Source: an uncultured delta proteobacterium (GTDB lineage: Bacteria > Desulfobacterota > RBG-13-43-22). Taken from it: DNA of 64,000 nucleotides. The first letter of the stretch is position 1. Every line of letters starts with the position of its first letter. Shown one piece after another: positions 10,301 through 62,541 of this stretch. Location of the stretch: positions 44,563 to 108,562 of the forward strand of contig CAWGEQ010000048.1 in NCBI GenBank assembly GCA_963821645.1. The letters are read 5' to 3'. The translations under genes were made by a program, and so were the position numbers. The notes under the pieces are model-generated. The model saw only the letters and a program-made list of their open reading frames with translations. It searched no databases and had not been told where the DNA came from.

Positions 10301-10441
10301 TCAGTTAAAATGTTCGTTCCTGCCTTATTCGCCCAACCTCAAGGAACACGAGGTCTATCAAAACATCCTCCGAATTTTTTATCCTTACGGGAATAACTTT
10401 TTCTTTCCCTAATCAGGAAGTTATGTTAAGGAAGAAGGCTT

Positions 10442-12030
10442 ATGGTCGGACAAAAGATAAAAGCCAGCAAACAAGTCGGCCTAAAGGATTTTCGGTCCAA
10501 GTCCGGGCGGATTAATGAATATGTCCTGATCTGTTTCAGCGCTCTCTTAGTCGTTCTTTCTTTTCCCAAATTCTCCTGGTCCATTTTGGCCTGGGGTTCC
10601 CTGGTTCCATTCTTTAAATCCCTTGAAGATAAACCGGCCCGAACAAGATTTCGGCTGGGATATCTATTCGGCATTGTTTATAACCTGGGGATTTTTTATT
10701 GGGTAACCCACTCCATGCGCTATTACGGCGGCTTGGACCCCTTTACCAGTTATTTTGTCCTGCTGCTTATGGTCCTTTATTTGGCCCTTTATACCGGGGC
10801 CTTTGGTTGGCTTTGGGGGTTATTCCCCACGAAGGGTCTTTTCCCTCTCATTTGGGTCCCCTCGACCTGGGTCGGCCTGGAATTCCTGCGGGCCCACCTA
10901 TTAACCGGATTTCCCTGGGAATTATTCGGCTATTCCCAATATAACTGTCTGCCGATAATCCAGATGGCCGAGATAACCGGGGTCTTGGGGGTCTCCTTTT
11001 TAATCATCTTAGTCAACCAAAGTTTATACCAGCTTTTTTTGACCGACCGCCCTTATGAAAAGAGGTCCCGGAAATGGAAATTGGCGGCTTTCCCCCTTTG
11101 TTTAATCATCTTAGTCCTTATTTTCGGCTTCAATGCTTTATATCAACAAAGGCAAAAAGATCGACAGGCCCCGTCTTTAAAAGTAGCCCTTATTCAGGGG
11201 AATATCGACCAATCCTTAAAATGGGACCCGACCTTTCAAGAAAAGACCATTGACCTTTATGAGAACCTGACCCTTAAAACAAGTTCTTCCGCCGCCGATT
11301 TGGTTGTCTGGCCGGAAACAGCGGTTCCTTTTTTTTCTTGAGTGAAAATCGTTTGTCCCCCAGATTATTTCAGTTGACCCGGAGAACCGGGGCCTCTCTT
11401 TTATTCGGGAGCCCGGCGGTTAATTATCCAGGAGGACAACCCCAATTTTATAATCGGGCCTATCTGCTGAGCCCCGAAGGCCGGATAAGTTTCTACGATA
11501 AGGTCCATCTGGTTCCCTTTGGAGAATATATTCCCTTAAAGAAGCTCTTACCCTTTGTGGGGAAAATAGTCCAAGCCATAGGTGATTTCAGCCCTGGGCC
11601 GGGAAGCTATGGGTTGGACCATCCAAAAGGGAAAATAGGTGTTCTGATCTGCTTTGAAACCATTTTCCCGGAATTATCCCGGGCCTATAAACAAGAAGGG
11701 TGTCGGCTTCTGGTCAACATGACCAATGACGCCTGGTTTGGGAAGACCTCGGCTCCTTACCAACACCTGTCCATGCTTACCTTTCGGGCCGTCGAAAACC
11801 GGCTCTGGATCGCCCGAGCCGCCAATACGGGTTTTAGCGCTGTTATTGATTCTACCGGGCGGATCACCAAGCGATTTCCGCTGTTTCAAACCGGGGGGAT
11901 TTATGCTACTATTCCCTTAAGGGAAGGAAAGACTTTTTATTCCCGCCACGGCGACCTGCTGATCATTTTTTGCGGCCTGGTTTTCCTCTCGGGAATTATT
12001 ATTGGGATAGTAAAGAAAAAAGGGGATTAA
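10442..12030 (+). CDS. lnt: apolipoprotein N-acyltransferase, interrupted by a frameshift in a T8 run (11329-11336)
   Basis: ORF 10442..11341 carries the multi-TM N-domain and the start of the CN-hydrolase domain (VALIQGNI...VVWPETAVPFF). ORF 11338..12030 continues the CN-hydrolase domain in another frame (ICFETIFPE...AANTGFSAVID). Confidence 0.8.
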
Positions 12031-12034
12031 GATC

Positions 12035-13121
12035 ATGAATGAAGAAATCAGTCGGGTTAAGGATAAATTGAATAAATTAGGAGACTATCTTTGACCTGGC
12101 CCACAAAAAAGAACGGATGGCCTCCCTGGAAAAGGTTATCGCCCAAAACAGCTTCTGGGACAAGCCGGATCAGGCCAGGGTCGTCCTGAAAGAAAGGGGA
12201 AAACTCAGTCAGGTTGTTTCCGAATGGGAACAAACCCGAGCCCAATTAGAGGAAGTAGAGATCCTTCAGGACCTGGGTTCAGCCGAAGACGACCAGGAAA
12301 CCCTGACCGAAGTGGTAACCCGTTTAAAGGATCTTGAGAGGCAATTGGCCCGGATGGAATTTAACAAACTTCTTTCCGGGGAAGAAGATATCAATAATGC
12401 CATCATGGCCATTCATGCCGGTGCCGGCGGCACGGAAGCCCAGGATTGGGCCGAGATGCTGCTCCGCATGTATCTGCGTTGGAGTGAACGGCGGGGGTTT
12501 AAGACCGAGATCCTCGATCAGTTGCCCGGAGACGAAGCCGGTCTCAAAAGTGTGACCTTTACCATCGAAGGGAAATATGCCTACGGCTATCTGCGCTCGG
12601 AGAGCGGGATCCATCGTCTGGTCCGCATCTCTCCTTTTGATGCCGGGGGACGCCGCCACACCTCCTTTGCTTCGGTTTTTGTCTATCCGGAGGTGGAAGA
12701 CGACATCGAGATCGAGATCAATGAGTCCGATGTTCGGGTTGACACCTTCCGGGCCAGCGGGGCCGGTGGACAACATGTCAACAAGACCAGCTCGGCCATC
12801 CGTTTGACCCATATGCCCACGGGAATTGTGGTCCAATGCCAAAACGAGAAATCACAGCACCGCAACAAAGACATGGCTTTTAAGGTCTTGAAATCAAGAC
12901 TCTATGAGTTGGAACTGGAAAAGAAAGAGGAAAAAAAGAAGGAGATCCACGAAGGGCAGGCCGATATTGCCTGGGGAAGTCAGATCCGTTCTTATACCCT
13001 GGCCCCCTACCAGTTGGTGAAGGACCATAGGACTCAATTGGAGATCGGCAATGTGGCTGATGTCCTTGACGGGGGGATCGATCCTTTTATTGAGGCCTTT
13101 TTGTGGAAAAAAAATAAATGA
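12035..13121 (+). CDS. prfB: peptide chain release factor 2, made by programmed +1 frameshift (12035..12091 joined to 12093..13121)
   Basis: A short frame (MNEEISRVKDKLNKLGDYL) ends at CTT TGA C. The +1 frame continues DLAHKKERMASLEKV... through the SPF and GGQ (SGAGGQHVNKT) motifs. Confidence 0.95.
12079..12095 (+). promoter_or_regulatory. prfB autoregulatory +1 frameshift site
   Basis: SD-like AGGAG (12079-12083) upstream of the slippery CTT (12089-12091) and an in-frame TGA (12092-12094) followed by C. Confidence 0.9.
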
Positions 13122-13267
13122 GGTTCAACTTAAACTCGCAGGCCCGCCTGATGCGGCTGACACGAAACATGAAAAGGAGCGTCAAAGGCCCAAAACCAAC
13201 TATGGCGTTCTAGTTTTTCCCTTGTACCTTAAACCTTGAACCGTTATTTTCGGACTAAGGAGGACTG

Positions 13268-14032
13268 ATGAGCTACCAGCATATTCAAAGCGAAGTAAAA
13301 GAAGGAATAGCCATTATTACCTTAAACCGGGAACCTCTCAATGTGCTTAATATCGCCATGATGAAGGAGATCAATCAGGCCCTGGATTCCTTGAAAGAGG
13401 CCAAGATCAAACTCCTCCTTTTCAAGGCCAAAGGCAAGGCCTTTTCGGCCGGGGTGGATGTGGGAGAACATCTTGGCGACCAGGTGGCGGAGATGATCGA
13501 GGTCTTTCACGGAATTTTCAGGCGCCTGGATGCCCTGCCGGCCTTATCCATCGCCTCGGTACAGGGGGCGGCCTTGGGCGGGGGCTGCGAGCTGGCTCTG
13601 TATTGCGATCTGGTCGTGGCCTCGGAGAAGGCCAAATTCGGCCAGCCTGAAATCCAGGTGGGGGTTTTCCCGCCCATAGCCGCTTTGATCCTTCCCAGGA
13701 TTGCCGGCCGGAAAAAGGCCCTGGAATTGATCCTATCAGGAGAAACGATCGGCGCCCAGGAGGCCCTGTCTCTGGGGCTGATCAATAAAGTGGTCCCTCC
13801 TGATGCCCTGGAAGAAGAGTTTCAAAAATTCTGCGCTAAATTTACGCCCTTAAGCGGCCTGGTCCTGTCTTTAACCAAAAAGGCTTTTAATGCCGGGTTG
13901 ATGGATCCTTCAGACCGGGGTTTGAAGGAGATCGAAAAAATCTATCTTCAGGAATTAATGAAAACCAAAGATGCCCAGGAAGGATTAAAGGCCTTTTTGG
14001 AAAAGAGAAAACCGGTTTGGAAGGAAGCCTGA
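13268..14032 (+). CDS. enoyl-CoA hydratase/isomerase (crotonase) family protein
   Basis: Crotonase fold motifs KAFSAGVDV, GAALGGGCELALYCD and QPEIQVGVFP. Confidence 0.85.
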   Translation: MSYQHIQSEVKEGIAIITLNREPLNVLNIAMMKEINQALDSLKEAKIKLLLFKAKGKAFSAGVDVGEHLGDQVAEMIEVFHGIFRRLDALPALSIASVQGAALGGGCELALYCDLVVASEKAKFGQPEIQVGVFPPIAALILPRIAGRKKALELILSGETIGAQEALSLGLINKVVPPDALEEEFQKFCAKFTPLSGLVLSLTKKAFNAGLMDPSDRGLKEIEKIYLQELMKTKDAQEGLKAFLEKRKPVWKEA

Positions 14033-14161
14033 GTAGTTGAACACGGATAGCGAAGACTCATAAATCCCCGCAGCTTGCTGCGTGGATTAGCGAGCGAACT
14101 ACGAAAAATAGAAATTTACCTTGCCGGGAAGATTCCCTGCACCTTGGTGCCGGGAGCTAAT

Positions 14162-14206
14162 CAGGATCGGGGATGAGGGGTCACGATCCCTCATCTCCTG
14201 ATCCTG
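14162..14206. terminator. nested GC-rich hairpin between convergent genes (possible bidirectional terminator, no clear U-tract)
   Basis: CAGGATC..GGATGAGGG..loop..CCCTCATC..GATCCTG. Confidence 0.4.
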
Positions 14207-14222
14207 GTCCGCCAATTCCACT

Positions 14223-14802
14223 CTAAGCAACATCGGAAACGGTGAAAACCGCCAAGTAATTGTAAGACCCGACATCCACTGTTTTAATCAGATTAAAAGA
14301 ATAGGGTCGAAGCCTATCGGTCACTTCTTCCACGGAGATTCGGATTTCAAGAGGAGGCCCTGGAGGGCCTTGCATTTTTTTAAATTCAACGACAGCCACC
14401 GTCCCCTGAGGTTTCATAACCCGTTTGATTTCTTTTAAGGTGCCTTGATCCGTATGGTCCTGGATAAGGTCATGTAAAACCGTGGCCAAAAGACAGACAT
14501 CCACGCTCCGGTCTTCCATCGGAATTTTCAGACTCACATCAGCCACAAGGGCTTCAATGTTAAGGATTTTACCGGTCAGCGACCGCTCTCCGCAAATCCT
14601 CGATCCCTTCCTTCCAGAGATCAACCGCAATGATACGGCCGGCAGGCCCAACATAGTCGGAGGCAGCAAGAGAATAGGCCCCCCGGCCGCAGGCAACATC
14701 AAGAAAGGTGATGCCTGCCTGGAGGTTCAGTTCCGAGAAAAATCTTTGGGTATCTATAAGGTTAAAACTGCTTTTTCCGGCTGCGATAGGTTTGTCGTTC
14801 AT
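14223..14802 (-). CDS. class I SAM-dependent methyltransferase, frameshifted near 14570-14590
   Basis: N-part ORF 14569..14802 carries motif I (FLDVACGRGAYS). The C-part continues in ORF 14223..14702 (VDVCLLATVLHDL...MKPQGTVAVVEF). The two overlapping frames read as one protein. Confidence 0.7.
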
Positions 14803-49148: not shown

Positions 49149-49173
49149 TCATTTGAAAGAAAGGAAGAATCAA

Positions 49174-49740
49174 ATGGACTTTAAGGAATTATTGGAAAAA
49201 CGGCGTTCTGTCAGGGACTTCGAAGACAAAGCGGTTTCGCCGGATCTGATTAAAAAAATCATCACTGAAAGCCTCAAGGCCCCCAACGCCAGCAATCTGC
49301 AGCCCTGGAAATTCATCGTGGTCAACAATCGAAAGATGATGAAAAGGATTTCCGATGCCAGTAAGAAAACGATCATCGCCGGCATCGAAAAAGACCCCAA
49401 TTCGCCTATGAAAGGATACCTGGAGATTCTGAAAAACGAAGGCTTCAATGTCTTTTACAATGCCCCCTGCTTAGTGGCCGTTGTCGGCCGCCTCAAAGGG
49501 GCCACCATTGCCATAGATTGTGCCCTCGTCGCCGCCTATTTTATGCTCTCGGCCGCCGACAAGGGCTTGGGCACCTGCTTTGTCGCCCAGGGAGCGGAGG
49601 CCAGGGACCCCGAGTTGCTTGAGGAAATCGGACTCCCCGAGGGGTACCGGATATGGGCCCCCATCATCGTCGGCTACCCGAAGAATATCCCTCCCATGCC
49701 GGATCGCAAGGAAGCCGAGATTCTAAAAATCATCTCCTAA
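49174..49740 (+). CDS. nitroreductase family protein
   Basis: RRSVRDF, PNASNLQPWKF. ATG 49174 with an AAGGAAG Shine-Dalgarno sequence is preferred over TTG 49153. Confidence 0.8.
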   Translation: MDFKELLEKRRSVRDFEDKAVSPDLIKKIITESLKAPNASNLQPWKFIVVNNRKMMKRISDASKKTIIAGIEKDPNSPMKGYLEILKNEGFNVFYNAPCLVAVVGRLKGATIAIDCALVAAYFMLSAADKGLGTCFVAQGAEARDPELLEEIGLPEGYRIWAPIIVGYPKNIPPMPDRKEAEILKIIS

Positions 49741-52005: not shown

Positions 52006-52266
52006 GGTTTGGTTCTCCTTTCAGGTGTTATGTTAGACGCGCAATCCTTTTATGATTTTTCCATTCCGGTTCTTGGCCTTTTCTCTTTCCCGGCATCTCT
52101 CTACAGGGGATACCCTACTATAAAATAGGCTGGAATGTTAGGTCAAGAATATTAGATCAACCAGGGAGTCATTTAAGATGGCAACCATTTTTCTTTCGCC
52201 GATTGTTTGATATTCCCCGATTCTATGGTTATAATAAAACAATCAAGATCGTTGGGAGGAGTGGGG

Positions 52267-53097
52267 ATGTCTAAGCGAGAAAAATCGGAAAAGATCGAAA
52301 ACGGAGAGTATAGAATAACCGAAGAACCTTTTTACCTTCCCCAGGGAAACGAAATAGCCATTTTTGAGGCGGCCCAGGCCAACAAGCTCCCGGTTTTGCT
52401 CAACGGTCCCACGGGAAGCGGAAAGACCAGACTGGTAGAACATATGGCCTGGCGGTTGAAGCTTCCCCTATACACCGTGGCCTGCCATGAGGACCTGAGC
52501 GCCAATGATCTGACCGGACGTTATATCATCAAGGGAGACGAGGTGAAATGGATAGACGGACCTCTCCTGATGGCCGTTCGTGAGGGGGGCATCGCCTACT
52601 TAGATGAAGTGGTCGAAGCCCGGAAGGATGTGACGGTGGTGATCCATCCCCTGACCGACCACCGGCGCTGTCTGCCGGTGGAAAAACGGAGTAAAATCTT
52701 TCACGCCCCGGAAGGATTCATGCTGGTCATTAGCTATAATCCAAACTACCAAAGTGTGCTTAAAGAACTCAAACCGAGCACCAGGCAGCGTTTCGTGTCG
52801 ATCAACCTGGGCTGGCCGAAGGAAGAGTTGGAAATACGCATCGTCAGCCGTGAGGCCGGTGTGGATGAAGAGACGGCGGATAAGCTGGTCAGGGCGGCCA
52901 ACCGGATACGTAATCTGGTCAATCAGGGACTCGAAGAGGGCGTATCCACCCGCGAGCTGGTTTATGCCGGGACGCTTCTTCGTAACGGATTGCCGATGAA
53001 AGATTCCCTTCAGGCCACCATGATCGAGCCCTTGACCTATGATATAGACCTGAAGAAAAGCATCGAAGAGGTACTGAAAAATTATTTTAGTTTTTGA
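52267..53097 (+). CDS. CbbQ/NirQ/NorQ/GvpN-family AAA+ ATPase (MoxR class)
   Basis: Walker A LNGPTGSGKT, Walker B GGIAYLDEV, and the conserved HPLTDHRR and VISYNP stretches. The start is set at MSKREKS behind GGGAGGAG; the track ORF starts at 52207. Confidence 0.85.
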   Translation: MSKREKSEKIENGEYRITEEPFYLPQGNEIAIFEAAQANKLPVLLNGPTGSGKTRLVEHMAWRLKLPLYTVACHEDLSANDLTGRYIIKGDEVKWIDGPLLMAVREGGIAYLDEVVEARKDVTVVIHPLTDHRRCLPVEKRSKIFHAPEGFMLVISYNPNYQSVLKELKPSTRQRFVSINLGWPKEELEIRIVSREAGVDEETADKLVRAANRIRNLVNQGLEEGVSTRELVYAGTLLRNGLPMKDSLQATMIEPLTYDIDLKKSIEEVLKNYFSF

Positions 53098-53213
53098 CAA
53101 TAGGATTCGAGGGGTCCGTGGTTCGAGGGTGGGGGGGCTGAATAAAATATGAAAAAGATTTCTCCAGCATTGAACCTTGATGAAATCATAAAAATCTCGG
53201 AGCACACATTTTT

Positions 53214-53292
53214 ATCATTCCCGTGAAAACGGGAATCCAGTATTTTTAAACAGTTGAGAATCATCTGGATTCCCGCCTTCGCGGGAATGACG
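53214..53292. repeat. paired REP-like elements in inverted orientation
   Basis: ATCATTCCCGTGAAAACGGGAATCCAG (53214-53240), a 24-nt spacer, then CTGGATTCCCGCCTTCGCGGGAATGACG (53265-53292). The layout matches 60948-61024. Confidence 0.7.
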
Positions 53293-53352
53293 AGTTTTTA
53301 CGAGACCATCGATGATGGATGTCGAAGGAAGACAAAAACAATTCACCTGATG

Positions 53353-53421
53353 ATTCGAAATTCGAAATTCGGTATTCAATATTCGTATTTATTGAATTCT
53401 CTGAACTTGAACCTTGAACGG
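53353..53421. repeat. heptamer tandem tract (ATTCGAA)n followed by (CTTGAAC)-type units
   Basis: attcgaa attcgaa attcggt attcaat attcgta, then ...gaattctctgaacttgaaccttgaacgg, directly upstream of the giant VWA gene. Confidence 0.55.
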
Positions 53422-53431
53422 TATTTCTTCC

Positions 53432-56400
53432 ATGTCCCATACTTCTAAAAATAAAACAGGTCATATCGATAAGGACTATGAAGAGGAATTGATCGCCCGG
53501 TTCGGCGAGGCCCTTTCTCCTCTGATTGATCGCTTCGGCTATGGAGGGATCGATCAAATAGGCATACTGATGGCCAGGCTCAGGCAAGATGACCCGCAGG
53601 CTGCTTTGTATCTTCTTAAAATAAGTCCTTCTCTTATCGACAGGCTTCTTCCCCAGGGTGAAGAGTTGATTTTGAATGTTTATGAATTGGGAAATCAGAT
53701 GGTCCCCTTTGGGTCCGTTTTAACCGTGAGACTTCTGGAGATGAGTCCTGAGATCCTTGAAAAGGGTGATTACCAAACCTTGGTTAAAACAGCCTCCCTG
53801 GCCCGTGAAGTGGCCCGTGAAAATAGTGCCACCGCAGTGACCCTGATTCAGAAAAGTCCGGACCTTCTCGAGTCCATAGGCTTCGAAGGACTCGAAAGGA
53901 TCGGCTTGTTTAGCGCGGCCATAGCCCGTTCAAGCCGGACCTATTCGCTGAAGGCCCTTGAACAGAGCACCTCGGCTGTCGAGGTCCTCCTCAAGTCGGG
54001 AGGTAAAGGGTTGGTCCTCACCGTCTATGGCCTGGGGATGCGCCTGGCCGATGAGGATTGGAGCAATGCCCTGGAAGTGGTCAAAAGAAGTCCGGACGTG
54101 GCCGAAGCGCTGGTTTCACAGGGAAACGGCCCACTCCTTACGGGTCTCTACGAGCAGGCGTCCAGGGCCGCTTCTTTCGGGGCCGGTCTGACCTTGACGT
54201 TCCTTGATACGGCCCCTTCCTTGATCGAACAGATCGGTCCGGCCGGGTTGGAACCAATTTGGAGGTGCGCCTTGGCCATGGCCGCCGAAAATCCGGAAAA
54301 TGCCCAGTCCCTCCTTAAAAAAAGCCCTGACATCGTACAGGGCCTGCTTTCCCGATTTTCTTCCTTAAAGGTTGGGGAAGTCTATGAACTGGGAATGGAT
54401 CTGGCCCGGATCAGTTCCCAATTGGCCCTCGGGTTTTTGGAGAAGAGTGTCGATCTGGCGGAGCGACTCGATGACGAAAATTTAATGCACCTTTTAAACA
54501 GGGCCAAAGAAATGGCTCAAGCGAGTCTGCCCGCGGCTGGGGCCTTTCTCCAGAACGCTTCGGCCTTGATCGACAGGGTCGGCGTCGGGGGACTGGACAA
54601 GATTGCCGATTGGAGCATACCCATGGCCCGTCAAAGCTTTGAAGCGGCTACCCGGTTCCTCCAAAAAAGCCCTGAACTGATCAACCGTCTGGGTCTTGAC
54701 GGAGTCAAGACGATCGGCGATTTTTCGGCCCTCTTGGCTCAAGAAAGCGAGACATCGGCCATCCGCCTTATTGAAAAATGCCCCTCTATCATCGACGGCC
54801 TCTTGAAGATCGACGGTCTTTCCCTGATAGCCGAAGTGTGCCGATTAGGCGGCCGGATCGCCCGAACCAACGCCCGACTGGCCGTGAGTCTTCTCGAAGG
54901 AAGCCCTGAAATCATAGGGATGGCCGGGTTCGCCGGACTTGAAAAGGTGGAGGAACTGGCCCATCAGGTGGGCCTCGAGAATTGGACAGCCGCCGTCAGC
55001 CTGGTCGAAGCAAGTCCCCGGATCATTGAACGGGTAGGATTCGAAGGGTTGGAAAGGATCGCCGCCGTGGCCCGGAAGATGGCCCGGGTGAATAGTTATA
55101 ACGCGGTCAATCTTCTGGAAAAATGTCCCGATCAGATCGATCGTCTCCTCCACTACGGAGACCAGACCCTGGCCCTCCATGTCTATGATCTGGCCGGAGA
55201 AGCGGTTTCCTTAGGCTGGAGAATGGCCTCGATCCTGCTGGAGCGAAGTCCGGAATTCCTCTCCAGTATAGGCGCTGATGGGCTGGAAAAGTTGATCGAC
55301 CTGGTCAACAAGAAGGCGGAAAAAAACCTGCCGGTGGCCTTGGGTATTCTGGATAAAGGCCTGGCCATTATGGATCGATTGGGATTTGAGGGGCTGGAAA
55401 TCCTGTCGGATCTTTCCTCGGTCGTCTTTAAGGCCGATCAGGAGGGGGCTTTATCGCTCCTGGAGAATGGCCCTTTGTTAATCGACCGTCTGGAGAATAC
55501 CATGGAGGGAAACGTGGCCTTGGCCGTTTATGACCTGGCGGCCAAGGTGGCCCGAACCAGCCCGGCGGTGGCCATGAGGCTCCTTGGAAAAAGTCCGGAA
55601 TTTCTCGACTGGGTGGGATTCGAAGGATTCGGGAGGATTGCGGCCTTTGTGGAAAATGCAGCCAAAGTGGATGAAGAAAAGGCCCTTTCTTTTTTAAAAA
55701 GCGATTCTCCGGCCTTTGCCGACTTTATGGAAAATATTCCCAAAGGGCTTGAGTTAAAGACCGTCAAGCCGGTGCTTTCCATCTATCTGAAGGCATTGCT
55801 GGGCAGGAGGGTGGAGATTGCCGAGGCTGACATGGTCTACACGGACGGCCAAAAAATATACCTGCCCCGTCGGATTAAGGAATTTCAGGACCGGGAAGAT
55901 AACTTCGCCCTTTATAAGGTATCGGCCACCCATCAGGAGGCTCATCTCGAATACGGAAGCTTTGAATTCGACCTGGACAGGATCGGGGACAGCGTCGAAC
56001 GACTCAGGTCTCTTTATGGAGAAAAGGCCGGTGAGGACGAAGGCGATATAGACCGGTTTGTCCTGCTTTTTCCGGAACCGGACCTGGCCCGGGATCTTTT
56101 TAACATTATGGAAGACTTTCGTATTGAAGACTTGCTAAAACGGGAATATCCTGCCCTCGGAAAAGATATTACCCGGATGAATCTCCACAAACTATCCCAG
56201 AGACGTCCACCTAAAAATATGACCAATCCCAAACAGCGGGCGGTGGAAATGATCGGTCAGTCTTTGATGGGTGGAAAGACCTTTGATGAACCCGGTGATC
56301 CGGCCTTTCCCATCCTCCAGGAGGCCTTGGAAAGGGCAGGGTTCCTGGAGCGGCCCGGGGCCGATGTGCATGACGCGGCACGAATAGCCGCAGAACTGAC

Positions 56401-57817
56401 CATTAGGCTCGATCGGGAATTTAAGGAACCCTACCGCCCGGCCAAGCCCATGGCCAAACCCCTGGATCAGGACATGGTTTCCCGGAATATCGGCAGCTTC
56501 GGCAAAACTTCCCAGAAGATCCAGGAGCGGATCAGTCGAAGGGAATCGGCCGGGCCCATACGGCCCCAGGACCAGCCTGAGGCGGAAAGCGGTTCGGAGG
56601 CGGAAACACAGCCCAGCCAAAGTCGGCCCGGCCAGGATAATATTCAACAGCGGCCCCGGCCTGTTGGTAAAGATCAAAGGACTTTTCAGGGACCCGTCGG
56701 AGGAGGAAAACCGGAATCCGGGGGTTCGGATACAGAAGCGGAAGAAACCGGCCGAGTGGGGGAAGTTATGAAATTTGATTCCCCTGAAAAGATAGAGCGT
56801 CTGCTAAAGGCGGCTTACCGGGAGCAGGGGATAACCCCCAAGGAGATCGAGCGGCGCCTTGAATCTCTTTACCAAAATGAAATTTATCTCTTCCTCCATA
56901 ATCTGGAAGCCTCGCTCGATAAAAAGACAGAGCTTCAAAGCGAAAGGGGAACCTCTCTGTACCCCGAATGGGGCGAAGATATCCAGGAATACCGGGGCAA
57001 CTGGGCCAGAGTACGCGAACAGACCCTGGCGGGGAAAACCCCGGATTTTTACCGGGAAACCCTGGACAGGTATGCGGGTCTTCTTAAAAAAATAAGAAGA
57101 GAATTTCAGATACTGAAACCCGAAGGGTTCGTCAAGCTCAAGCGGCAATACGACGGTGATGATATTGACCTGGATGCCGTGGTGGAATATTGGGTGGACC
57201 GAAAAGCAGGGCTTTCTCCTGGCGAAAACAACTACACCCTAACCCGGAAAAAAAGACGGGACATCGCCGTGGCCTTTCTGATCGATATGAGCCGGAGTAC
57301 CAAAGGGGCTACCATCGAAAGGGAGAAGGAATCACTCATCATCATGTCCGAGGCCCTTCATGAAGTGGGGGATAGCTTTGCCGTTTTCGGCTTTTCAGGG
57401 GACAACCGGGACAATGTGGATTTTTACCGGATCAAGGGCTTTGATGATCCCTATGACGATCCGGTGAAAAAAAGGATTTCCGCCATCACGGATCGCTTTG
57501 AAAACCGGGACGGTACGGCCATCAGACACACCGTAACCAAACTACGGAGGAGACCGGAACGAACCAAGCTGATCATCCTCCTGAGCGACGGCAAGCCGGT
57601 GGACAAGGAGTATACCGGCCTCTATGCCATCGAAGACACGCGTATGGCCCTGAAAGAGGCCCAGCATTTCGGTATCAAAACCTTCTGCATAACCGTTGAC
57701 CGGACCGCTGCTGAATACCTGCCCAGAATGTACAGCCACAGTAGTTGGACGGTTATCGATGATGTTATCAGACTTCCCGAGAAAATCACCAGGATTTACC
57801 GGGGTCTGACGGCTTAA
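53432..57817 (+). CDS. giant CbbO/NorD-like von Willebrand factor A protein with an N-terminal array of 19 tandem 37/41-aa helical repeats
   Basis: C-terminal VWA/MIDAS domain (VAFLIDMSRST...FGFSG...ILLSDGKPVD...ITVD). NorD/CbbO-like middle region (TDGQKIYLP...NFALYKVSATHQEAHLEYGSF). An acidic/Pro-rich linker. The repeats are in track aa 35-763. Start ATG 53432 is preferred over TTG 53414, but there is no clear Shine-Dalgarno sequence. Confidence 0.8.
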   Translation: MSHTSKNKTGHIDKDYEEELIARFGEALSPLIDRFGYGGIDQIGILMARLRQDDPQAALYLLKISPSLIDRLLPQGEELILNVYELGNQMVPFGSVLTVRLLEMSPEILEKGDYQTLVKTASLAREVARENSATAVTLIQKSPDLLESIGFEGLERIGLFSAAIARSSRTYSLKALEQSTSAVEVLLKSGGKGLVLTVYGLGMRLADEDWSNALEVVKRSPDVAEALVSQGNGPLLTGLYEQASRAASFGAGLTLTFLDTAPSLIEQIGPAGLEPIWRCALAMAAENPENAQSLLKKSPDIVQGLLSRFSSLKVGEVYELGMDLARISSQLALGFLEKSVDLAERLDDENLMHLLNRAKEMAQASLPAAGAFLQNASALIDRVGVGGLDKIADWSIPMARQSFEAATRFLQKSPELINRLGLDGVKTIGDFSALLAQESETSAIRLIEKCPSIIDGLLKIDGLSLIAEVCRLGGRIARTNARLAVSLLEGSPEIIGMAGFAGLEKVEELAHQVGLENWTAAVSLVEASPRIIERVGFEGLERIAAVARKMARVNSYNAVNLLEKCPDQIDRLLHYGDQTLALHVYDLAGEAVSLGWRMASILLERSPEFLSSIGADGLEKLIDLVNKKAEKNLPVALGILDKGLAIMDRLGFEGLEILSDLSSVVFKADQEGALSLLENGPLLIDRLENTMEGNVALAVYDLAAKVARTSPAVAMRLLGKSPEFLDWVGFEGFGRIAAFVENAAKVDEEKALSFLKSDSPAFADFMENIPKGLELKTVKPVLSIYLKALLGRRVEIAEADMVYTDGQKIYLPRRIKEFQDREDNFALYKVSATHQEAHLEYGSFEFDLDRIGDSVERLRSLYGEKAGEDEGDIDRFVLLFPEPDLARDLFNIMEDFRIEDLLKREYPALGKDITRMNLHKLSQRRPPKNMTNPKQRAVEMIGQSLMGGKTFDEPGDPAFPILQEALERAGFLERPGADVHDAARIAAELTIRLDREFKEPYRPAKPMAKPLDQDMVSRNIGSFGKTSQKIQERISRRESAGPIRPQDQPEAESGSEAETQPSQSRPGQDNIQQRPRPVGKDQRTFQGPVGGGKPESGGSDTEAEETGRVGEVMKFDSPEKIERLLKAAYREQGITPKEIERRLESLYQNEIYLFLHNLEASLDKKTELQSERGTSLYPEWGEDIQEYRGNWARVREQTLAGKTPDFYRETLDRYAGLLKKIRREFQILKPEGFVKLKRQYDGDDIDLDAVVEYWVDRKAGLSPGENNYTLTRKKRRDIAVAFLIDMSRSTKGATIEREKESLIIMSEALHEVGDSFAVFGFSGDNRDNVDFYRIKGFDDPYDDPVKKRISAITDRFENRDGTAIRHTVTKLRRRPERTKLIILLSDGKPVDKEYTGLYAIEDTRMALKEAQHFGIKTFCITVDRTAAEYLPRMYSHSSWTVIDDVIRLPEKITRIYRGLTA

Positions 57818-57923: not shown

Positions 57924-58493
57924 ATGGCTCAAGATTCCAAAGAAAAAAAACGGGGAACGACAATTGAATTGTTGAATAAGGCCCGTGGCATGGAGTTGCT
58001 GGCGATTTCACAGTATATGAACCAGCATTATAACCTGGATAACCTGGATTATGGGGATATGGCCGCCAAGGTTAAATTGATCGCCATCGATGAAATGCGC
58101 CACGCGGAGATGTTTGCCGACCGCATAAAAGAGTTAGCCGGAGAGCCGACTTCAGACCCGGCTGGAAAGGTACAAAAAGGTCAAAAAGTCGAGGGGATGT
58201 TTTCCTTTGATGCCAATCTCGAGGACAATACGATCGACACCTACAACCAGTTTCTGACGGTGTGCAGGGAAAACGGCGACAGCATCAGCATGAAGCTTTT
58301 TGAAGCGATCATCGATGAAGAGCAGGTCCATTTCAATTACTTTGACAATGTAAATGACCACATCGAGAAGCTCAACGGGACCTATCTGGCTCAGATAGCC
58401 GGGACCCCATCGACCACCGGCCTGCAGACTCAGGGCTTTGTCGCCAGGCAGGGGATTAAACCACCGCCGGGGGGCGCCACTCCCCTTCGATAA
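57924..58493 (+). CDS. bacterioferritin-like / ferritin-like di-iron protein with a ~30-aa Gly/Pro-rich C-terminal extension
   Basis: Ferroxidase-type ligand pattern (ELLAISQY...IDEMRHAEMF...EEQVHFNY). 189 aa, longer than I recall for typical Bfr proteins. AAGGAGA Shine-Dalgarno sequence. Confidence 0.75.
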   Translation: MAQDSKEKKRGTTIELLNKARGMELLAISQYMNQHYNLDNLDYGDMAAKVKLIAIDEMRHAEMFADRIKELAGEPTSDPAGKVQKGQKVEGMFSFDANLEDNTIDTYNQFLTVCRENGDSISMKLFEAIIDEEQVHFNYFDNVNDHIEKLNGTYLAQIAGTPSTTGLQTQGFVARQGIKPPPGGATPLR

Positions 58494-58645: not shown

Positions 58646-59356
58646 TCAAATAAATTTACAGACCCCGACGGGGCAGCGTTTTTCTTTGATGTGGATCTCA
58701 AACTCTTCCCTGAAATTGGTCAAGATAGCCAGAATAATATGGGAGGTCTTACCGGCGAAGGCACAATAGGCCGCCTGCTGCATCAGGGTCATCAGCGATT
58801 CCATCTCCTGAAGGGCATCTTCCGGCGCTCGGCCGTGACTGATGGCTTCAATGAGATCGGAAAGCCTTTGAATACCCAGGCGGCAGGGGACGCATTTGCC
58901 GCAGGATTCACCGTAATGGAACTTGATCAGATAGTCGGCGACCTGAACCATACAGGTGGAGGGGTCCATGACCATAATACAACTATGGTCTTTTTCCCAA
59001 ATCAAGTCGCCCCGGGTGGACTGAAGGGGATTCAGACGCAATAAAGGAAAGAGGATCTTCCCCTTTTGAATCGTCTCTTCCAGAATAAAGGGGACATGGG
59101 CTTCCTGGACCTGTTCATAAAAAAGGCCCATGTGAGGCAAACTCAAGAAAGGTCCCCGGCGGCACGTTCCGCTGCAACCGCATTTGGCCGGCTCAATGAC
59201 TACGGGGATATTCAACCTTTGGGCTTCGGCAATAAGGCCCTTATAAAGGGCTTCTGCCCCACAGCTCGGCTTGGGTCCTTGACCCCGGCAAACCGTTATC
59301 CTTGGGGCCTGGGTAGCCTGGGGCTCCGCGATCAGATTGGTGGATACTGCTGGCAT
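58646..59356 (-). CDS. Fe-S protein fusing a thioredoxin-like [2Fe-2S] (NuoE-type) domain to the NuoF C-terminal [4Fe-4S] domain; no FMN/NADH domain
   Basis: N-terminal VCRG...SCGAE...CGCSGTCRRGP. C-terminal ESCGKCVPCRLG...YCAFAG. The intervening region aligns with the NuoF region just before the cluster (DPSTCMVQVADYL). Confidence 0.7.
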   Translation of the reverse strand: MPAVSTNLIAEPQATQAPRITVCRGQGPKPSCGAEALYKGLIAEAQRLNIPVVIEPAKCGCSGTCRRGPFLSLPHMGLFYEQVQEAHVPFILEETIQKGKILFPLLRLNPLQSTRGDLIWEKDHSCIMVMDPSTCMVQVADYLIKFHYGESCGKCVPCRLGIQRLSDLIEAISHGRAPEDALQEMESLMTLMQQAAYCAFAGKTSHIILAILTNFREEFEIHIKEKRCPVGVCKFI

Positions 59357-59379
59357 ATATATAAACTCCGTTTTGGTTT

Positions 59380-59448
59380 AAGGTATAAGGTGCAAGGTAT
59401 ACGGTATATGGGTTTTCCTTTTACCTTGTACCTTGCACCTTATACCTT
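59380..59448. repeat. AAGGTAT-family hairpin (perfect 20-bp stem) between nuoN and the NuoE/F-like gene
   Basis: AAGGTATAAGGTGCAAGGTA (59380-59399) pairs with TACCTTGCACCTTATACCTT (59429-59448). Confidence 0.75.
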
Positions 59449-59452
59449 TCTT

Positions 59453-60871
59453 TTATGAGATGATCGTCTTACAGGCAGTCCGGGCCATTTCGATAAACCA
59501 GGACGGCAAGGAGCCCATCAGGATGATCGCCAGGATCAACCCATAGTTTAATATTTTATTGGAAAAACTTAAGGACACGACCGGCAGTCCGCCTGGGTCC
59601 TGCCCATAGGCGGCGCGAACGATATTTAGATAGTAATAAATCGAAATGGCCGTATTGACCGCGGCGATAATCACCAGGGCCAGATGTCCCTGATTCAAGG
59701 CCGCCGTGAATAGGAACAATTTGCCGGTGAATCCGGCGGTGGGCGGAATACCGGCCAGGGCAAAGGCCCCCACGGCCAGGGTAAAGGCCAACAAGGGGGA
59801 ACGGCGATAAAGGCCGGAGAGGTCGCTGACCATCACGTTTTCCCCTTCCTGGGAAAGGGAACAGATGACCAGGAAACAGGCCAGATTCATCAAGAGATAA
59901 GCGGCAATGTGATAAATGGCCGCGCCGTAGCCCAGGGCATTCAGGGTCAGGACCCCCAGCATGATATAGCCGGCGTGGGCGATACTGGAATAGGCCAGCA
60001 ACCGCTTAAGGTCTTTCTGGACCAGGGCCGCCAGATTACCGAAGGTCATGGACAGGGCCGAAAGTAAAACCAGAACCTGAATCAGGTCTACCGCTCCTGT
60101 CCCGGCCAGACTGGTAATGCGCAGCAGCAAGGCCACCCCGGCCAATTTGGGCATGGTGGCCACATAGGAGACGGTTTCATTGGCTGCCCCCTGGTAAACA
60201 TCGGGGGTCCAGAATTGAAAGGGTACGACGGCTAATTTAAAGAAAAAGCCGCAGAGAATCAGCAGGAGTCCGATAAGGGCCACCGGCTGGCTGATGATAA
60301 GGGGCATCTTGGTGAGGATGTCCACCAGATAGGTCGATTGGGTGACGCCGAAGATATAGCTCATGCCGAAAATCATGACCCCGGTGGCCGCGGCCCCGAA
60401 TATGATGTATTTGATGGCCGCTTCCATCTGCCCGCCGTGATTCTGTTTTCGGATAGGGATGAGGACATAGAGAGAATAGGAGGACAACTCCATGGCGATA
60501 AAAATAGTCACCAGCTCTACACTGCTGACCATCAACATCAGCCCCAGGGCGCTTAAGCTCAGAAACATAAAAAATTCCGGCAGGAGACGGTCCTCAATGC
60601 TTTTGAACTTCTGGCCCAGGACGATAATTAAAAACAGCCCCAGGCTGATGAGGATCTTAAAAACCTGGGAAAAGAGATCCACCCGGTAGGATTTATAAAA
60701 AAGGTCTCCGCTTATATTCAGGGAACAAAGGCTCAGGATGAGGCCGATGGCGGAAAGAAAAAGGGCCAGACCCTGATTGGTCTTGGCGGACGAAGTCCAT
60801 AAGGATTGGCAAAAAAAGATCAGGGCCATCAACAGCAGAAAGGTTTCCGGTATGAATAACGAGAAATCCAT
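59453..60871 (-). CDS. nuoN: NADH-quinone oxidoreductase subunit N-like antiporter-type subunit
   Basis: 472 aa, ~14 TMS, NuoN/ND2-like motifs (FQFWTPDVYQGA, LLAYSSIAHAGY). Confidence 0.8.
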   Translation of the reverse strand: MDFSLFIPETFLLLMALIFFCQSLWTSSAKTNQGLALFLSAIGLILSLCSLNISGDLFYKSYRVDLFSQVFKILISLGLFLIIVLGQKFKSIEDRLLPEFFMFLSLSALGLMLMVSSVELVTIFIAMELSSYSLYVLIPIRKQNHGGQMEAAIKYIIFGAAATGVMIFGMSYIFGVTQSTYLVDILTKMPLIISQPVALIGLLLILCGFFFKLAVVPFQFWTPDVYQGAANETVSYVATMPKLAGVALLLRITSLAGTGAVDLIQVLVLLSALSMTFGNLAALVQKDLKRLLAYSSIAHAGYIMLGVLTLNALGYGAAIYHIAAYLLMNLACFLVICSLSQEGENVMVSDLSGLYRRSPLLAFTLAVGAFALAGIPPTAGFTGKLFLFTAALNQGHLALVIIAAVNTAISIYYYLNIVRAAYGQDPGGLPVVSLSFSNKILNYGLILAIILMGSLPSWFIEMARTACKTIIS

Positions 60872-60947
60872 TATGATTCGTTCCTTAGACTTATTATAAA
60901 TCCGATAAAGTTGACAATTCCGTAATGTTCGAAAGCACTCATTTTCG

Positions 60948-61024
60948 CCATTCCCTGAAAAGGGGAATCCTGCGTTTCTTGTCGGCTTCGTTGGTCTGGA
61001 TTCCCGCCTGTCGCTGGAATGACG
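60948..61024. repeat. paired REP-like elements inside the nuoM-nuoN intergenic space
   Basis: GCCATTCCCTGAAAAGGGGAATCCTG (60948-60972), a 23-nt spacer, then CTGGATTCCCGCCTGTCGCTGGAATGACG (60996-61024). Confidence 0.7.
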
Positions 61025-61040
61025 ACTTCTTGCGACTTCA

Positions 61041-62541
61041 TCATTTCACTAAAGCCAAGGCACTTCCGGCCTGAACCTGCTTGATCAAATGATCCACACT
61101 GGCGTGCATAACATCCAAAAATGGGGTCGGGGCAAAGCCGATCCACAAAACGAAAACGGCCAGGGGGACTAAATAAACGATCTCCCGGGCATTAAGATCG
61201 AAAAAGTGATGGGTCCCTAAGTTGGGTCCCCAGGCGATCTTTTGGAGCAAGCGGAGCATATAGGCCGCCGCTAAAACCACCCCGGGAATGGACAGGGCAC
61301 CCACTATTTTATTGTTTAAAAAGGTGCCGATCAAGACCAGCAGCTCGCCCACAAAACTGTTGGTTCCGGGAAAGGCCATGGAGGACAGTGAAAAAAAGCC
61401 CAAAAACCCGATATAATAGGGCATGATCTTGCTGAGGCCGGAATTGTCGCTGATCTCACGGCTGTGGGTCCTTTCATAAATAATACCCACGCAGAGAAAG
61501 AGGGCCCCGGTGGTGATCCCGTGATTGATCATCTGTAAGATGGCCCCTTCCATCCCCTGTTTGTTGAACAGGAAGATGCCCAGGGTGACAAACCCCATGT
61601 GGGCCACGCTGGAATAGGCGATCAATTTTTTCATGTCACTTTGCCCCAGGGCCACATATCCGCCGTAGATGATGGAGATGATGGACATCCAGAGGAGATA
61701 GGGGGCGAAGTAAAGGCTGGCCTGGGGGGTGATGGGCAGACAAAAACGGACAAAGCCGTAGGTGCCCATTTTCAGCAATATGCTGGCCAGCAAGACACTG
61801 CCGGCGGTCGGGGCCTGCACATGGGCGGCCGGCAACCAGGTATGAAAGGGGGCCATGGGGACCTTGATGGCAAAGGCGATTCCAAAAGCCAGAAAGATCC
61901 AGAATTGAAAGGCGAATGAATAGTGATGGGTCATTAGCTCCGGAATACTAAAGGTCCCGGCCGCCAGGTAAAGGGCGATCATGGCCACCATGAGGAAAAC
62001 GCTGCCGGCCATGGTGTAGATAAAGAACTTAATCGAGGCGTAGACCTTTTCCGGGCCTCCCCAGACGGCGATCAATAAATACATGGGGACCAGCATGGCC
62101 TCCCAGAAAATATAAAAAAGAACGAAATCCAGGGCGGAGAAGACCCCGACGCAGGCCGTTTCCATGAAGAGGAGACAGATGTGGAATTCCTTGACCCGTT
62201 TCTCGATGTATTTCCAGGAGGCCAGAACGCAGATGGGGGTGAGCAAGGTGCTCAGACAGGACCAGAAGGAGGCTGATGCCGTCGACCCCCAGGGTATAAT
62301 TGATTTTGAACATGGGGATCCAGGGGGCATGCTCGGCAAATTGATATTTATAGGTCGCCAGGTCGAAATTGAAGTAAAGGGGCAAAGAGAGAAAAAAAGC
62401 CGCCAGACTGACGAGCAAGGTCCAGATCCTGGCCGCTTTTTCATTTTTGAATAGAAAAAGGACCACGGCCCCGGCCAGGGGCAAAAAGATCAAGGTGCTT
62501 AAAATCGGGTAACTAAGCTGATTGGGGATAAGAAAATCCAT
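61041..62541 (-). CDS. nuoM: NADH-quinone oxidoreductase subunit M-like antiporter-type subunit, frameshifted near 62255-62270
   Basis: The N-terminus MDFLIPNQLSYPILSTLIFLPL...YTLGVDGISLLLVL (ORF 62029..62565) continues in ORF 61041..62444 as LSTLLTPICVLASW...FYIFWEAMLVPMYLLI...HTWLPAAHVQAPTAGSV...LIAYSSVAHMGF. Confidence 0.8.

Follow-up and report, generated by a model that had tools for sequence, protein, structure and literature searches.

The N-terminal half of a giant NorD/CbbO-like VWA protein is formed by an array of helical repeats, and this repeat type (37/41 aa, with a 115-aa super-repeat) is new to Pfam, NCBIfam, PDB and BFVD. The array is somewhat likely to act as a client-recognition or scaffold arm on the VWA adaptor of an ATP-driven CbbQ/NorQ-type machine. 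Searches of the literature turned up neither this repeat nor any giant proteins of NorD/CbbO type.

To our knowledge, MoxR-VWA pairs are widespread and their clients are known for few of them (cNOR, Rubisco, cobaltochelatase, CODH). This subfamily bears on how a VWA adaptor picks its client by means of the variable N-terminal part, as it offers a very large, regular and confidently modelled N-terminal arm. Since archaea encode this arm as a separate polypeptide, it is a natural bait for client finding. The hosts (Smithella/Syntrophaceae, ANME-1) are central to methane and hydrocarbon cycling and, as far as we know, the maturation of their key metalloenzymes is poorly understood.

Gene locus and NorD-like core

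The gene was analysed in a 64,000-nt stretch of DNA (the window) from an uncultured delta proteobacterium (GCA_963821645.1, contig CAWGEQ010000048.1, 44,563 to 108,562 of the forward strand). Its features, in window positions, are as follows.

52207..53097, + strand: CbbQ/NorQ-type MoxR AAA+ ATPase gene (Pfam AAA_5 and CbbQ_C; NorQ/CbbQ structures)
53098..53413, + strand: cbbQ-VWA intergenic spacer of unusual length, containing two hairpins and one short tandem repeat rich in AT
53414..57817, + strand: giant NorD/CbbO-like VWA adaptor gene (ORF list; 1467 aa from TTG 53414)
53516..54556, + strand: irregular array part, repeat units 1-9 (aa 35-381; order A-B-A-A-B-B-A-B-A)
54557..55702, + strand: core array, repeat units 10-19 (aa 382-763; three 115-aa A-A-B and a final A)
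55703..56533, + strand: NorD/CbbO/CobT-type N-terminal domain (aa 764-1040; two sub-domains, flexible loop at aa ~869-877)
56534..56893, + strand: low-complexity linker, predicted to be disordered (aa 1041-1160)
56894..57814, + strand: predicted finger, VWA/MIDAS domain and putative ATPase-binding C-terminus (aa 1161-1467)
57284-57298, + strand: MIDAS DxSxS motif (D1291-S1295)
57924..58493, + strand: ferritin-like gene, downstream of the VWA gene (Pfam Ferritin E 3.2e-25)

The true start of the VWA adaptor gene is probably ATG 53432, as read from the sequence, which would give a protein of 1461 aa. Full-length homologues (n=50) share 40-98% identity. The start of the ATPase is likewise probably M21 at 52267, giving 276 aa; the protein matched Pfam AAA_5 (E 9.5e-33) and CbbQ_C (E 2e-27) and, in the PDB, NorQ (9qh4_A, E 3.2e-98) and CbbQ (5c3c_A, E 3.5e-91). 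In the spacer, reading of the sequence revealed hairpins at 53217-53236 and ~53268-53290 with the common stem ATTCCCG/CGGGAAT, a terminator-like match was found, and the AT-rich tandem repeat was located at 53353-53389 by TRF. Smithella loci such as L005 have a cbbQ-VWA gap of ~15-20 nt, compared to 53098..53413 in the window. Rfam gave 0 matches over all 64,000 nt.

In 60 loci the gene immediately upstream of the VWA gene is a cbbQ orthologue, and cbbQ is regarded as the obligatory partner. When the flanking ORFs were clustered, no conserved neighbour family beside cbbQ occurred in more than 15 of the 83 loci, and this clustering showed no conserved linkage to the client genes norCB or cbbLS/cbbM. 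The next commonest neighbours were a nitroreductase-family gene (15/83), which recurs in bacteria and ANME-1, and a ferritin-like gene (7/83); the latter was considered as a conserved partner and rejected, being downstream in 7 loci of one subclade (the closest clade) only. Toxin-antitoxin and transposase genes were seen near the homologue at locus L001.

The last ~700 residues (aa 764-1467) are an apparently complete NorD/CbbO-type module composed of an N-terminal domain, a disordered linker, a predicted pore finger and a MIDAS VWA domain. The VWA domain was matched by Pfam VWA (E 5.1e-10), the C-terminal part by its profile to residues 352-643 of NorD 9qhd_G (E 2e-53), and the C-terminal region by Foldseek to NorD chains (E 9.1e-13). 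The aligned NorD stretch, 352-643, contains the IYRxL motif of the C-terminus as well as the finger, which in P. denitrificans is 403-448; the finger region has a pLDDT <50 in the AF2 model, which was made without the ATPase ring. Residues D1291, S1293, S1295 and D1392 are invariant in 27 homologues. For the third MIDAS element, the NorD Thr aligns to an invariant ENRDG loop with no conserved Thr, so the Thr element of the MIDAS is uncertain. The N-terminal domain (aa 764-1040) was modelled with a pLDDT of 80-94; its model, queried without the VWA domain, gave partial matches of probability 1.0 in BFVD to a CobT subunit and VWFA proteins, and its TDGxxIxLP motif aligned weakly by HMM to NorD residues 83-117. 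The linker has a pLDDT of ~30 at aa 1043-1118 and is, over aa 1041-1160, analogous to the NorD linker 242-393, which is unresolved in the structure (PMC13036017). The layout of globular N-terminal domain, long disordered linker and VWA domain is that of NorD (PMC13036017, PMC9976466).

Periodicity, age and fold of the array

The array covers aa 35-763 (53516..55702, in frame) and consists of 19 tandem units of 36-41 aa each. The unit lengths listed in the first-pass annotation (36, 40, 37, 37, 41, 41, 37, 41, 37, 37, 37, 41, 37, 37, 41, 37, 37, 41 and 37 aa) sum to 729 and the units align in register. Its division into types A (37 aa) and B (41 aa) also held, the two differing by one 4-residue indel when aligned. 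The order A-A-B, which it had read three times in units 10-18 as a 115-aa super-repeat, is exact in every homologue examined, down to 33% identity. A partial unit-like helix is present ahead of unit 1 at aa ~20-34 in the AF2 model.

The periodicity was analysed by BLOSUM62 autocorrelation of aa 1-770 and was significant, with z up to 15.6 compared to ~4 for shuffles (99th percentile of the per-shuffle maximum z ~4.1). Peaks were obtained at lags of 37 (z 12.7), 41 (6.4), 78 (12.7), 115 (15.6), 152 (10.3), 193 (8.2) and 230 (10.5), and the autocorrelation revealed no periodicity in the C-terminal half of the protein. An independent test used a profile built from units 10-18 of the homologues only, with the window sequence excluded. 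This profile scored 216 bits on window aa 1-381, spanning units 1-8, whereas 200 shuffles reached 6.3 bits at most. The very divergent unit 9 was recovered weakly (4.2 bits), and no match was obtained within aa 764-1467.

Identity between units is ~25% for protein (maximum 46%) and 43-46% for nucleotides, while third codon positions show 0.33 identity against 0.26 expected at random. Tandem Repeats Finder detected no DNA tandem repeat in the array, and therefore the repeat exists at the protein level only. By the divergence of its units and the lack of a DNA repeat, the array is ancient. Each unit is kept as an orthologue across ~50 homologues, down to 33% identity and in exact 115-aa registers, and units are closer to their own orthologues than to neighbouring units. 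Positions that are unit-specific yet conserved among orthologues form clusters at A27-30 and B31-32. The array is the least conserved part of the protein, at 47% identity; the N-terminal domain reaches 62% and the VWA region 80%. Most invariant residues within the array are G, A, L or P, which hints at constraint by structure rather than by binding.

The AF2 model has a mean pLDDT of 88.6. The array is entirely helical in it, and the units are predicted to run on as a single continuous repeat structure. DSSP assigned one ~36-residue helix to the A unit (37 aa) and two helices, of 19-21 and 15 residues, to the B unit (41 aa), giving a helix pattern of 36-36-19/21-15 per super-repeat, and placed the unit boundary 'EKSPxLIDR' within a helix. 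Helices of 36 residues with single-residue breaks are unusual and could in part be an artefact of modelling or assignment. With one helix per A unit and two per B unit, the pattern departs from HEAT/ARM proteins, in which each unit is a two-helix hairpin. Of the earlier suggestion of an alpha-solenoid of HEAT/ARM type, the helical-repeat array stands by the model, while the HEAT/ARM part is not supported, with no HEAT/ARM/TPR model match and no natural solenoid found by Foldseek at E<=1e-3. No Pfam match to HEAT, HEAT_2, HEAT_PBS or Arm was obtained at E<=0.1 for the whole protein, nor to HEAT/ARM models at E<=10 for the window array or the more regular array of homologue P0042; at E<=10 the two arrays and the N-terminal domain gave only noise. 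The first-pass annotation had recognised no named repeat family in the unit, in accordance with the finding of nothing in NCBIfam or, even at E<=10, in Pfam. In the PDB, Foldseek with the array model gave 0 matches at E<=1e-3, and no natural HEAT/ARM protein was among the 46 weak matches; BFVD likewise yielded no significant match.

The distribution of the repeat was obtained by an exhaustive HMMER search of 1.84 billion clusters with the super-repeat profile (E<=1e-3). The repeat is rare, being found in 198 clusters (50% identity), and the array-bearing clusters nearly all fall within one NorD-like subfamily, to which it is thus nearly private; canonical CbbO/NorD clusters were absent from the 198 matches at this threshold. 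A homologue search with the super-repeat profile had given no scored match, probably owing to a word-seeding limit. The earlier remark that CbbO/NorD proteins are much shorter is borne out by characterised NorD (638-646 aa) and the closest array-less relatives (745-807 aa). Its companion, that none is known to carry such an array, applies to characterised NorD but not to the subfamily, where ~200 clusters carry one.

The array differs in size between lineages. Syntrophales have ~19 units, with number and register strictly conserved; ANME-1/Methanosarcinales have ~10-11 units, often with a split gene; another form has ~8 degenerate units; and no array was detected in the Desulfurivibrio relatives. 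A proto-unit in the ~110-aa N-termini of these array-less forms was considered and dropped (hhalign against the super-repeat profile, probability 0.2%). The core of units 10-19 is common to the window protein and the archaeal forms. The Methanosarcinales form L060 lacks units 1-9 and keeps this core, and units 3-4 are missing in Desulfatitalea and P0050. In the ANME-1 split, one ORF encodes the array and half of the N-terminal domain and a second encodes the other half and the VWA domain; the split point is the flexible loop at aa ~869-877, and the two halves are sometimes unlinked. Rare repeat proteins without VWA (P0074, P0084, P0070) gave no match in Pfam, NCBIfam or PDB; relatives of P0074 lie on Woesearchaeota-type contigs without cbbQ and are uninformative on function. 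P0094, P0111, P0172 and P0182 contain Ank, TPR or low-complexity sequence and were treated as false positives.

Proposed role of the array

In the favoured reading, the gene product is the VWA adaptor of a MoxR AAA+ machine of CbbQ/NorQ type, which is encoded by two genes and, by analogy, may work like NorQD/CbbQO. As in NorD, the N-terminal domain would dock on the side of the ATPase ring, the finger would enter the ring pore and the C-terminus would bind the ring. As an extended arm with position-specific units, the array would hold a putative large client at a point distant from the MIDAS site. Driven by ATP, the VWA domain could then rotate against the docked N-terminal domain and work on the client at two points of contact, resulting in remodelling or metal insertion. 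Rotation of this kind is the 'twisting' mechanism proposed for NorQD. For NorD, a grip on the client at two leverage points has been proposed, the N-terminal domain being one of them (PMC13036017). In VWA proteins associated with MoxR, the N-terminal region differs in length and is proposed to determine the target (PMC9976466). A client-binding or scaffold surface, as suggested by the first-pass annotation, is reasonable as a hypothesis and fits these views. An arm of this kind is supported by units that differ mutually, yet are each kept among orthologues, and by modularity (the ANME-1 split and an array of 0 to ~19 units between lineages). Counted against it are the low conservation of the array relative to the other regions and the lack of a conserved client gene in the 83 loci.

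The more specific idea that the three A-A-B super-repeats with the older irregular units form a multivalent ruler, on which several copies or several subunits of a large oligomeric client would be bound at a fixed spacing, is speculative and has a small chance of being correct. If true, the CbbQ/VWA machine would serve to assemble, or to insert metal into, a multi-subunit enzyme complex characteristic of syntrophic and methane-oxidising anaerobes; MoxR chaperones would gain a further class of client, and the repeats would be a functional family of a new kind. The nitroreductase-family and ferritin-like neighbours would then come first as candidate client and iron donor.

A less probable but serious alternative is that the array is passive structure, i.e. 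a spacer or lever arm, a scaffold for oligomerisation or localisation, or a tether to the membrane or a large assembly. Its 47% identity with mainly G, A, L and P invariant, its length differing by lineage (~19, ~10-11 or ~8 degenerate units) and its best weak structural analogues, namely designed helical-repeat scaffolds that are rigid and long helices resembling phage tape measures, are consistent with such a part. However, a pure spacer would tolerate homogenisation or copy-number drift, whereas in Syntrophales unit number and register are strictly fixed, units resemble their orthologues more than their neighbours, and the unit-specific conserved positions gather at one turn.

It is improbable that the array is a divergent form of HEAT/ARM, TPR or the organellar 35-38-aa PPR/OPR/HPR repeats, the last of which could read nucleic acid unit by unit. 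The unit length of 37-41 aa is within the HEAT/OPR/HPR range, and the family profile marginally matched the RAP-domain protein RESC6 (E 0.0088, no stretch significant alone) and designed repeat cages. Against this, no Pfam repeat model matched at E<=10, including the TPR/PPR/OPR/HPR sequence models, no natural solenoid was found at E<=1e-3 by Foldseek in PDB/BFVD, and the predicted helices do not form one hairpin per unit. The array is also acidic (pI 4.87, net charge -25), unlike nucleic-acid-binding repeat arrays. Least probable, and very much so, is a MoxR-vWA conflict or defence system in which the array would sense invaders, on the pattern of the ternary systems described by Kaur et al. 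(2020). MoxR-vWA pairs with repeat-rich sensors do occur in conflict systems, some in deltaproteobacteria, and the ternary systems are of VMAP, iSTAND or FtsH types with a conserved third component and variable effectors fused to vWA (PMC7159879); the genes noted near L001 would also agree. The 83 loci, however, have no conserved third gene and Pfam revealed no effector domain; the VWA domain is C-terminal and the ATPase is of CbbQ/NorQ type, not CoxD-derived. PADLOC gave no match to the VWA protein and only P-loop-level matches for the ATPase, and the stable orthology with fixed unit count is not rapid diversification.

Comparison with known systems

The de novo designed DHRs (FD15 'flat repeat helix-turn-helix-turn', 8ugc) are the best structural analogues of the array, at non-significant E 0.012-3. 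They share regular all-helical tandem repeats but are artificial, which precludes homology, and TM-scores are low (TMt 0.13-0.52).

The VWA adaptor itself was compared with three adaptor-ATPase systems. CobT with CobS is the VWA subunit of an ATP-driven cobaltochelatase. Pfam CobT_C covers part of the VWA domain (E 8.7e-6) and the BFVD models of CobT and VWFA proteins align to the N-terminal domain, but the NCBIfam CobT equivalog, whose cut-off is 759 bits, scored 13.6. A cobN context is missing, and CobT itself lacks a repeat array. CbbO with CbbQ is the Rubisco activase adaptor-ATPase pair, with one VWA adaptor per CbbQ hexamer. The same MoxR-VWA logic is seen here, the partner ATPase matched CbbQ structures at E 3.5e-91 and 4.2e-84, and the nearest array-less relatives (Desulfurivibrio) are CbbO-sized; however, no conserved Rubisco-like neighbour showed up in the 83 loci and characterised CbbO is without the 730-aa array.

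NorD with NorQ is a VWA adaptor and MoxR AAA+ pair that inserts the non-haem FeB into cNOR. The partner ATPase is very close to NorQ, and the C-terminal VWA/MIDAS region is homologous to that of NorD. Unlike the present protein, NorD is without a repeat array; beside the homologues no conserved client gene of the norCB kind was found, their hosts are strictly anaerobic syntrophs and ANME archaea, and the N-terminal domain is weakly similar to that of NorD in sequence. Both have an adjacent, co-oriented ATPase gene and the same domain order of N-terminal domain, disordered linker and VWA domain, and the NorD structures are 9qh6 and 9qhd-9qhg (PMC13036017).

Periodicity, age and conservation of the repeat array

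The repeat organisation of the VWA protein, the adaptor encoded next to cbbQ, was analysed using the following features.

53414-57817, forward strand: VWA gene, ORF of 1467 aa
53516-55702, in frame with the VWA ORF: repeat array, aa 35-763
52207-53097, upstream of the VWA gene: cbbQ gene with AAA_5 and CbbQ_C domains, probable start M21 at 52267

The true start of the VWA gene is likely ATG 53432 (M7) rather than the start codon listed first (53414-53434), a shift that leaves the array unaffected; the recorded start of a homologue with 98% identity (P0001) is residue 17. The first-pass annotation had described 19 tandem units of two types, and cutting the translation at the unit lengths it gave yielded 19 units aligned in register, in which the 37-aa type A and the 41-aa type B were told apart by a single 4-residue indel. 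BLOSUM62 autocorrelation of aa 1-770 revealed z values of 12.7 (lag 37), 12.7 (78), 15.6 (115), 10.3 (152), 8.2 (193) and 10.5 (230) against a 99th percentile of the per-shuffle maximum of about 4, indicating that the array is real, and the same analysis found no periodicity in the C-terminal half. An independent profile, with units 10-18 of homologues as sole input, scored 216 bits on window aa 1-381, spanning units 1-8, while the best of 200 shuffles reached 6.3 bits. Unit 9, at 4.2 bits, has diverged strongly, and no match to this profile was found past aa 763. The 19-unit array is confirmed. The family-wide consensus is SP[EAD]LI[DE]R[VLI]G[FY]EGLEKIAxLAxxIARE[SDN]WxTAVSLLEK for type A and SPDIIDRLLxxGDxSLVLxVYxLAxxxAxx[SNG][AWP]RLA[LV]xLLEK for type B.

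The expansion of the array is old, because identity between units is low in protein (mean 25%, maximum 46%), in nucleotides (0.43-0.46) and at the third codon position (0.33, where composition predicts 0.26), no nucleotide word common to two units is longer than 11 nt, and no DNA tandem repeat was found underlying the array. In contrast to this divergence within one protein, every unit is kept as an orthologue among homologues, and the Syntrophales proteins carry 19 of 19 units. The A-A-B order noted from unit 10 onward also held, with exactly 115 aa per block over units 10-18 in homologues down to 33% identity.

Predicted structure of the array and the adaptor core

Modelling of aa 1-1040 in AlphaFold2 from a 43-sequence alignment gave a mean pLDDT of 88.6 and a pTM of 0.62. 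The whole array was helical in this model, as its composition had suggested. DSSP assigned each 115-aa super-repeat of the regular part helices 36, 36, 19-21 and 15 residues long, with breaks near position 27 of A units and near 10-13 and 29-31 of B units, and the 'EKSPxLIDR' unit boundary falls within a helix. HEAT and ARM repeats have a two-helix hairpin per unit; the predicted helix pattern differs from this, and the HEAT/ARM-like label was not upheld.

The core of the protein resembles NorD. Homology to the NorD of the solved NorQD complexes covers residues 1171-1467, which align with NorD residues 352-643 (E 1.9e-45 with the single sequence, 2e-53 with the family profile), and the MIDAS DxSxS (D1291, S1293, S1295) and D1392 are invariant. 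A second AlphaFold2 model (aa 764-1467) showed aa 764-1040 as a confidently predicted domain (pLDDT 80-94), together with a disordered linker of about 75 residues (aa 1043-1118), a low-confidence finger region and the VWA alpha/beta core. In Foldseek the best matches of this model were NorD chains (E 9.1e-13), of which the deposited chains cover just about 220-290 residues, with the N-terminal domain outside the comparison. In BFVD the model of aa 1-1040 gave probability-1.0 partial matches to a CobT subunit and VWFA proteins; as this model holds no VWA domain, these matches place aa 764-1040 as a CobT/NorD/CbbO-type N-terminal domain.

Distribution, split genes and gene neighbourhood

An exhaustive search of 1.84 billion representative proteins with the 115-aa super-repeat profile gave only 198 matches at E<=1e-3, of which 71 reached E<=1e-10 and 32 reached E<=1e-30. 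The array span varied from about 250-330 aa, in 900-1100-aa proteins with degenerate units, to about 730 aa. L-numbers below denote loci of homologues and P-numbers homologous or profile-matched proteins.

Table. Protein length and array content by lineage
Syntrophales (Smithella, Syntrophaceae): 1460-1480 aa; 19 units
Desulfatitalea and P0050: 1330-1418 aa; without units 3-4
Methanosarcinales MAG (L060): 1040 aa; units ~10-19 kept
Desulfurivibrio relatives: 745-807 aa; no unit detectable (hhalign probability 0.2%)

The repeat occurs without a VWA domain in few proteins (P0070, P0074, P0084), which had no Pfam, NCBIfam or PDB match and no recognisable domain. P0074 (L084 3798-5762) carries five near-consensus units and a C-terminal region of about 400 aa of no recognised type, and P0070 and P0084 have divergent K/E/I-rich arrays. 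Relatives of P0074 lie on Woesearchaeota-type contigs without cbbQ and are recorded as Woesearchaeota hypothetical proteins.

Homologues from ANME-1/Methanophagales and one Desulfobacteria MAG are encoded by two ORFs, consistently divided at window aa ~871-877, the lowest-confidence, flexible loop inside the N-terminal domain. ORF1 then holds about 11 units and the first half of this domain, and ORF2 its second half, the linker and the VWA domain, often with a 4-nt overlap (L037 9863-13119; L045 9935-13131; L048 8733-12088; L053 1463-4785; L080; L081; L033). The split ORFs are about 690 nt apart in L047, and some ANME-1-type genomes have the two halves at separate loci: an ORF2-like gene (half N-terminal domain and VWA) stands alone with no cbbQ nearby in L042, L043, L050, L055 and L058, and L086 (5002-7584) has cbbQ and the repeat ORF1 with no adjoining ORF2. 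In the closest genomic relative (L034, cbbQ 97% identical) the VWA gene (10001-14412) lies in three ORFs (10001-13174, 13044-13913, 13939-14412), the breaks being frameshifts from either assembly errors or a pseudogene.

A cbbQ orthologue was immediately 5' of the VWA gene in 60 of 83 surveyed loci from named genomes and metagenomes, the sole widely shared neighbour family. Its product matched the structures of NorQ (E 3.2e-98) and CbbQ (E 3.5e-91), and the gene probably starts at M21, downstream of the listed start (52207-52269), in agreement with the 276-aa orthologues. No client gene could be read from the neighbourhood of these loci. Two further neighbours are listed.

49153-49740, forward strand: nitroreductase-family gene
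57924-58493, forward strand: ferritin-like gene (189 aa; Pfam Ferritin E 3.2e-25)

The only recurrent neighbour besides cbbQ is the nitroreductase-family gene, found no more than a few kb from the VWA gene in 15 of 83 loci. Among these are members of a Syntrophales subclade and of ANME-1 (L035, L042, L043, L047, L052, L055, with 23-26% identity to the window copy; elsewhere L001, L014, L017, L018, L022, L073). The signal is weak since these 15 loci are not independent. The ferritin-like gene directly follows the VWA gene in 7 loci, all from the closest clade; its product is below the NCBIfam bacterioferritin cut-off and has a G/P/T-rich C-terminal tail of about 35 aa. As NorQD inserts iron, it could conceivably act, by analogy, as iron donor.

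The cbbQ-VWA gap (53098-53413) is 317 nt in the window and about 15-20 nt in Smithella loci. It contains a hairpin at 53217-53236 (ATTCCCGTGAAAACGGGAAT) followed by a T-run, a second at ~53268-53290 (GGATTCCCGCCTTCGCGGGAATG) with an identical stem, and an AT-rich 'ATTCGAA' mini-repeat at 53353-53389. This stretch could be a terminator/attenuator or a small REP/MITE-like insertion; Rfam gave no match in the gap. The reverse strand at 58646-62444 encodes a 236-aa protein bearing NuoE/NuoF-like cysteine motifs (CGKCVPCR) and, after it, membrane proteins that by sequence resemble NuoN and NuoM, probably the end of a complex-I-like operon convergent with the ferritin gene.

Role of the array and comparison with known systems

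The array is a separable, ancient module with individually conserved units. It could be a passive spacer or scaffold, as it is the least conserved region (47% identity to the window protein; the N-terminal domain has 62% and the finger and VWA region 80%) and its invariant residues are mostly structural. However, the positions that differ between units yet are conserved in orthologues cluster at A27-30 and B31-32, the turn and start of the 'W-x-T-A' helix, which favours a position-specific surface over a homogeneous spacer. Another rival, and an unlikely one, is that the array belongs in divergent form to a repeat family already known. No Pfam model matched it even at E<=10, NCBIfam gave nothing, BFVD gave nothing significant, and Foldseek against PDB returned 0 matches at E<=1e-3, the best weak ones being de novo designed helical-repeat proteins; this agrees with the earlier remark that the unit was not recognised as a named repeat family. 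A nucleic-acid-reading repeat code is disfavoured by the acidic character of the array (pI 4.87, net charge -25). A conflict system was also considered and rejected, failing the defining features of those systems.

[quoted passage not shown] The best-supported reading, in which both client and mechanism are inferred, is that the array would serve an ATP-driven remodelling or metal-insertion machine as an extended arm for client recognition or scaffolding.

Pfam, NCBIfam, PDB, BFVD and the searchable literature yielded neither the 37/41-aa repeat with its 115-aa super-repeat nor giant NorD-like adaptors bearing it, and the only names given to these proteins in public records are 'VWA domain-containing protein', 'NorD protein' and 'YegL'. 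The CbbQ/NorQ-VWA pair is an already known system type. The order of parts, from N-terminal domain through linker, finger and VWA domain to C-terminus, is the same as in NorD (PMC13036017, PMC9976466); the VWA protein is thus an entire NorD/CbbO-like adaptor preceded by an added array of 730 aa.
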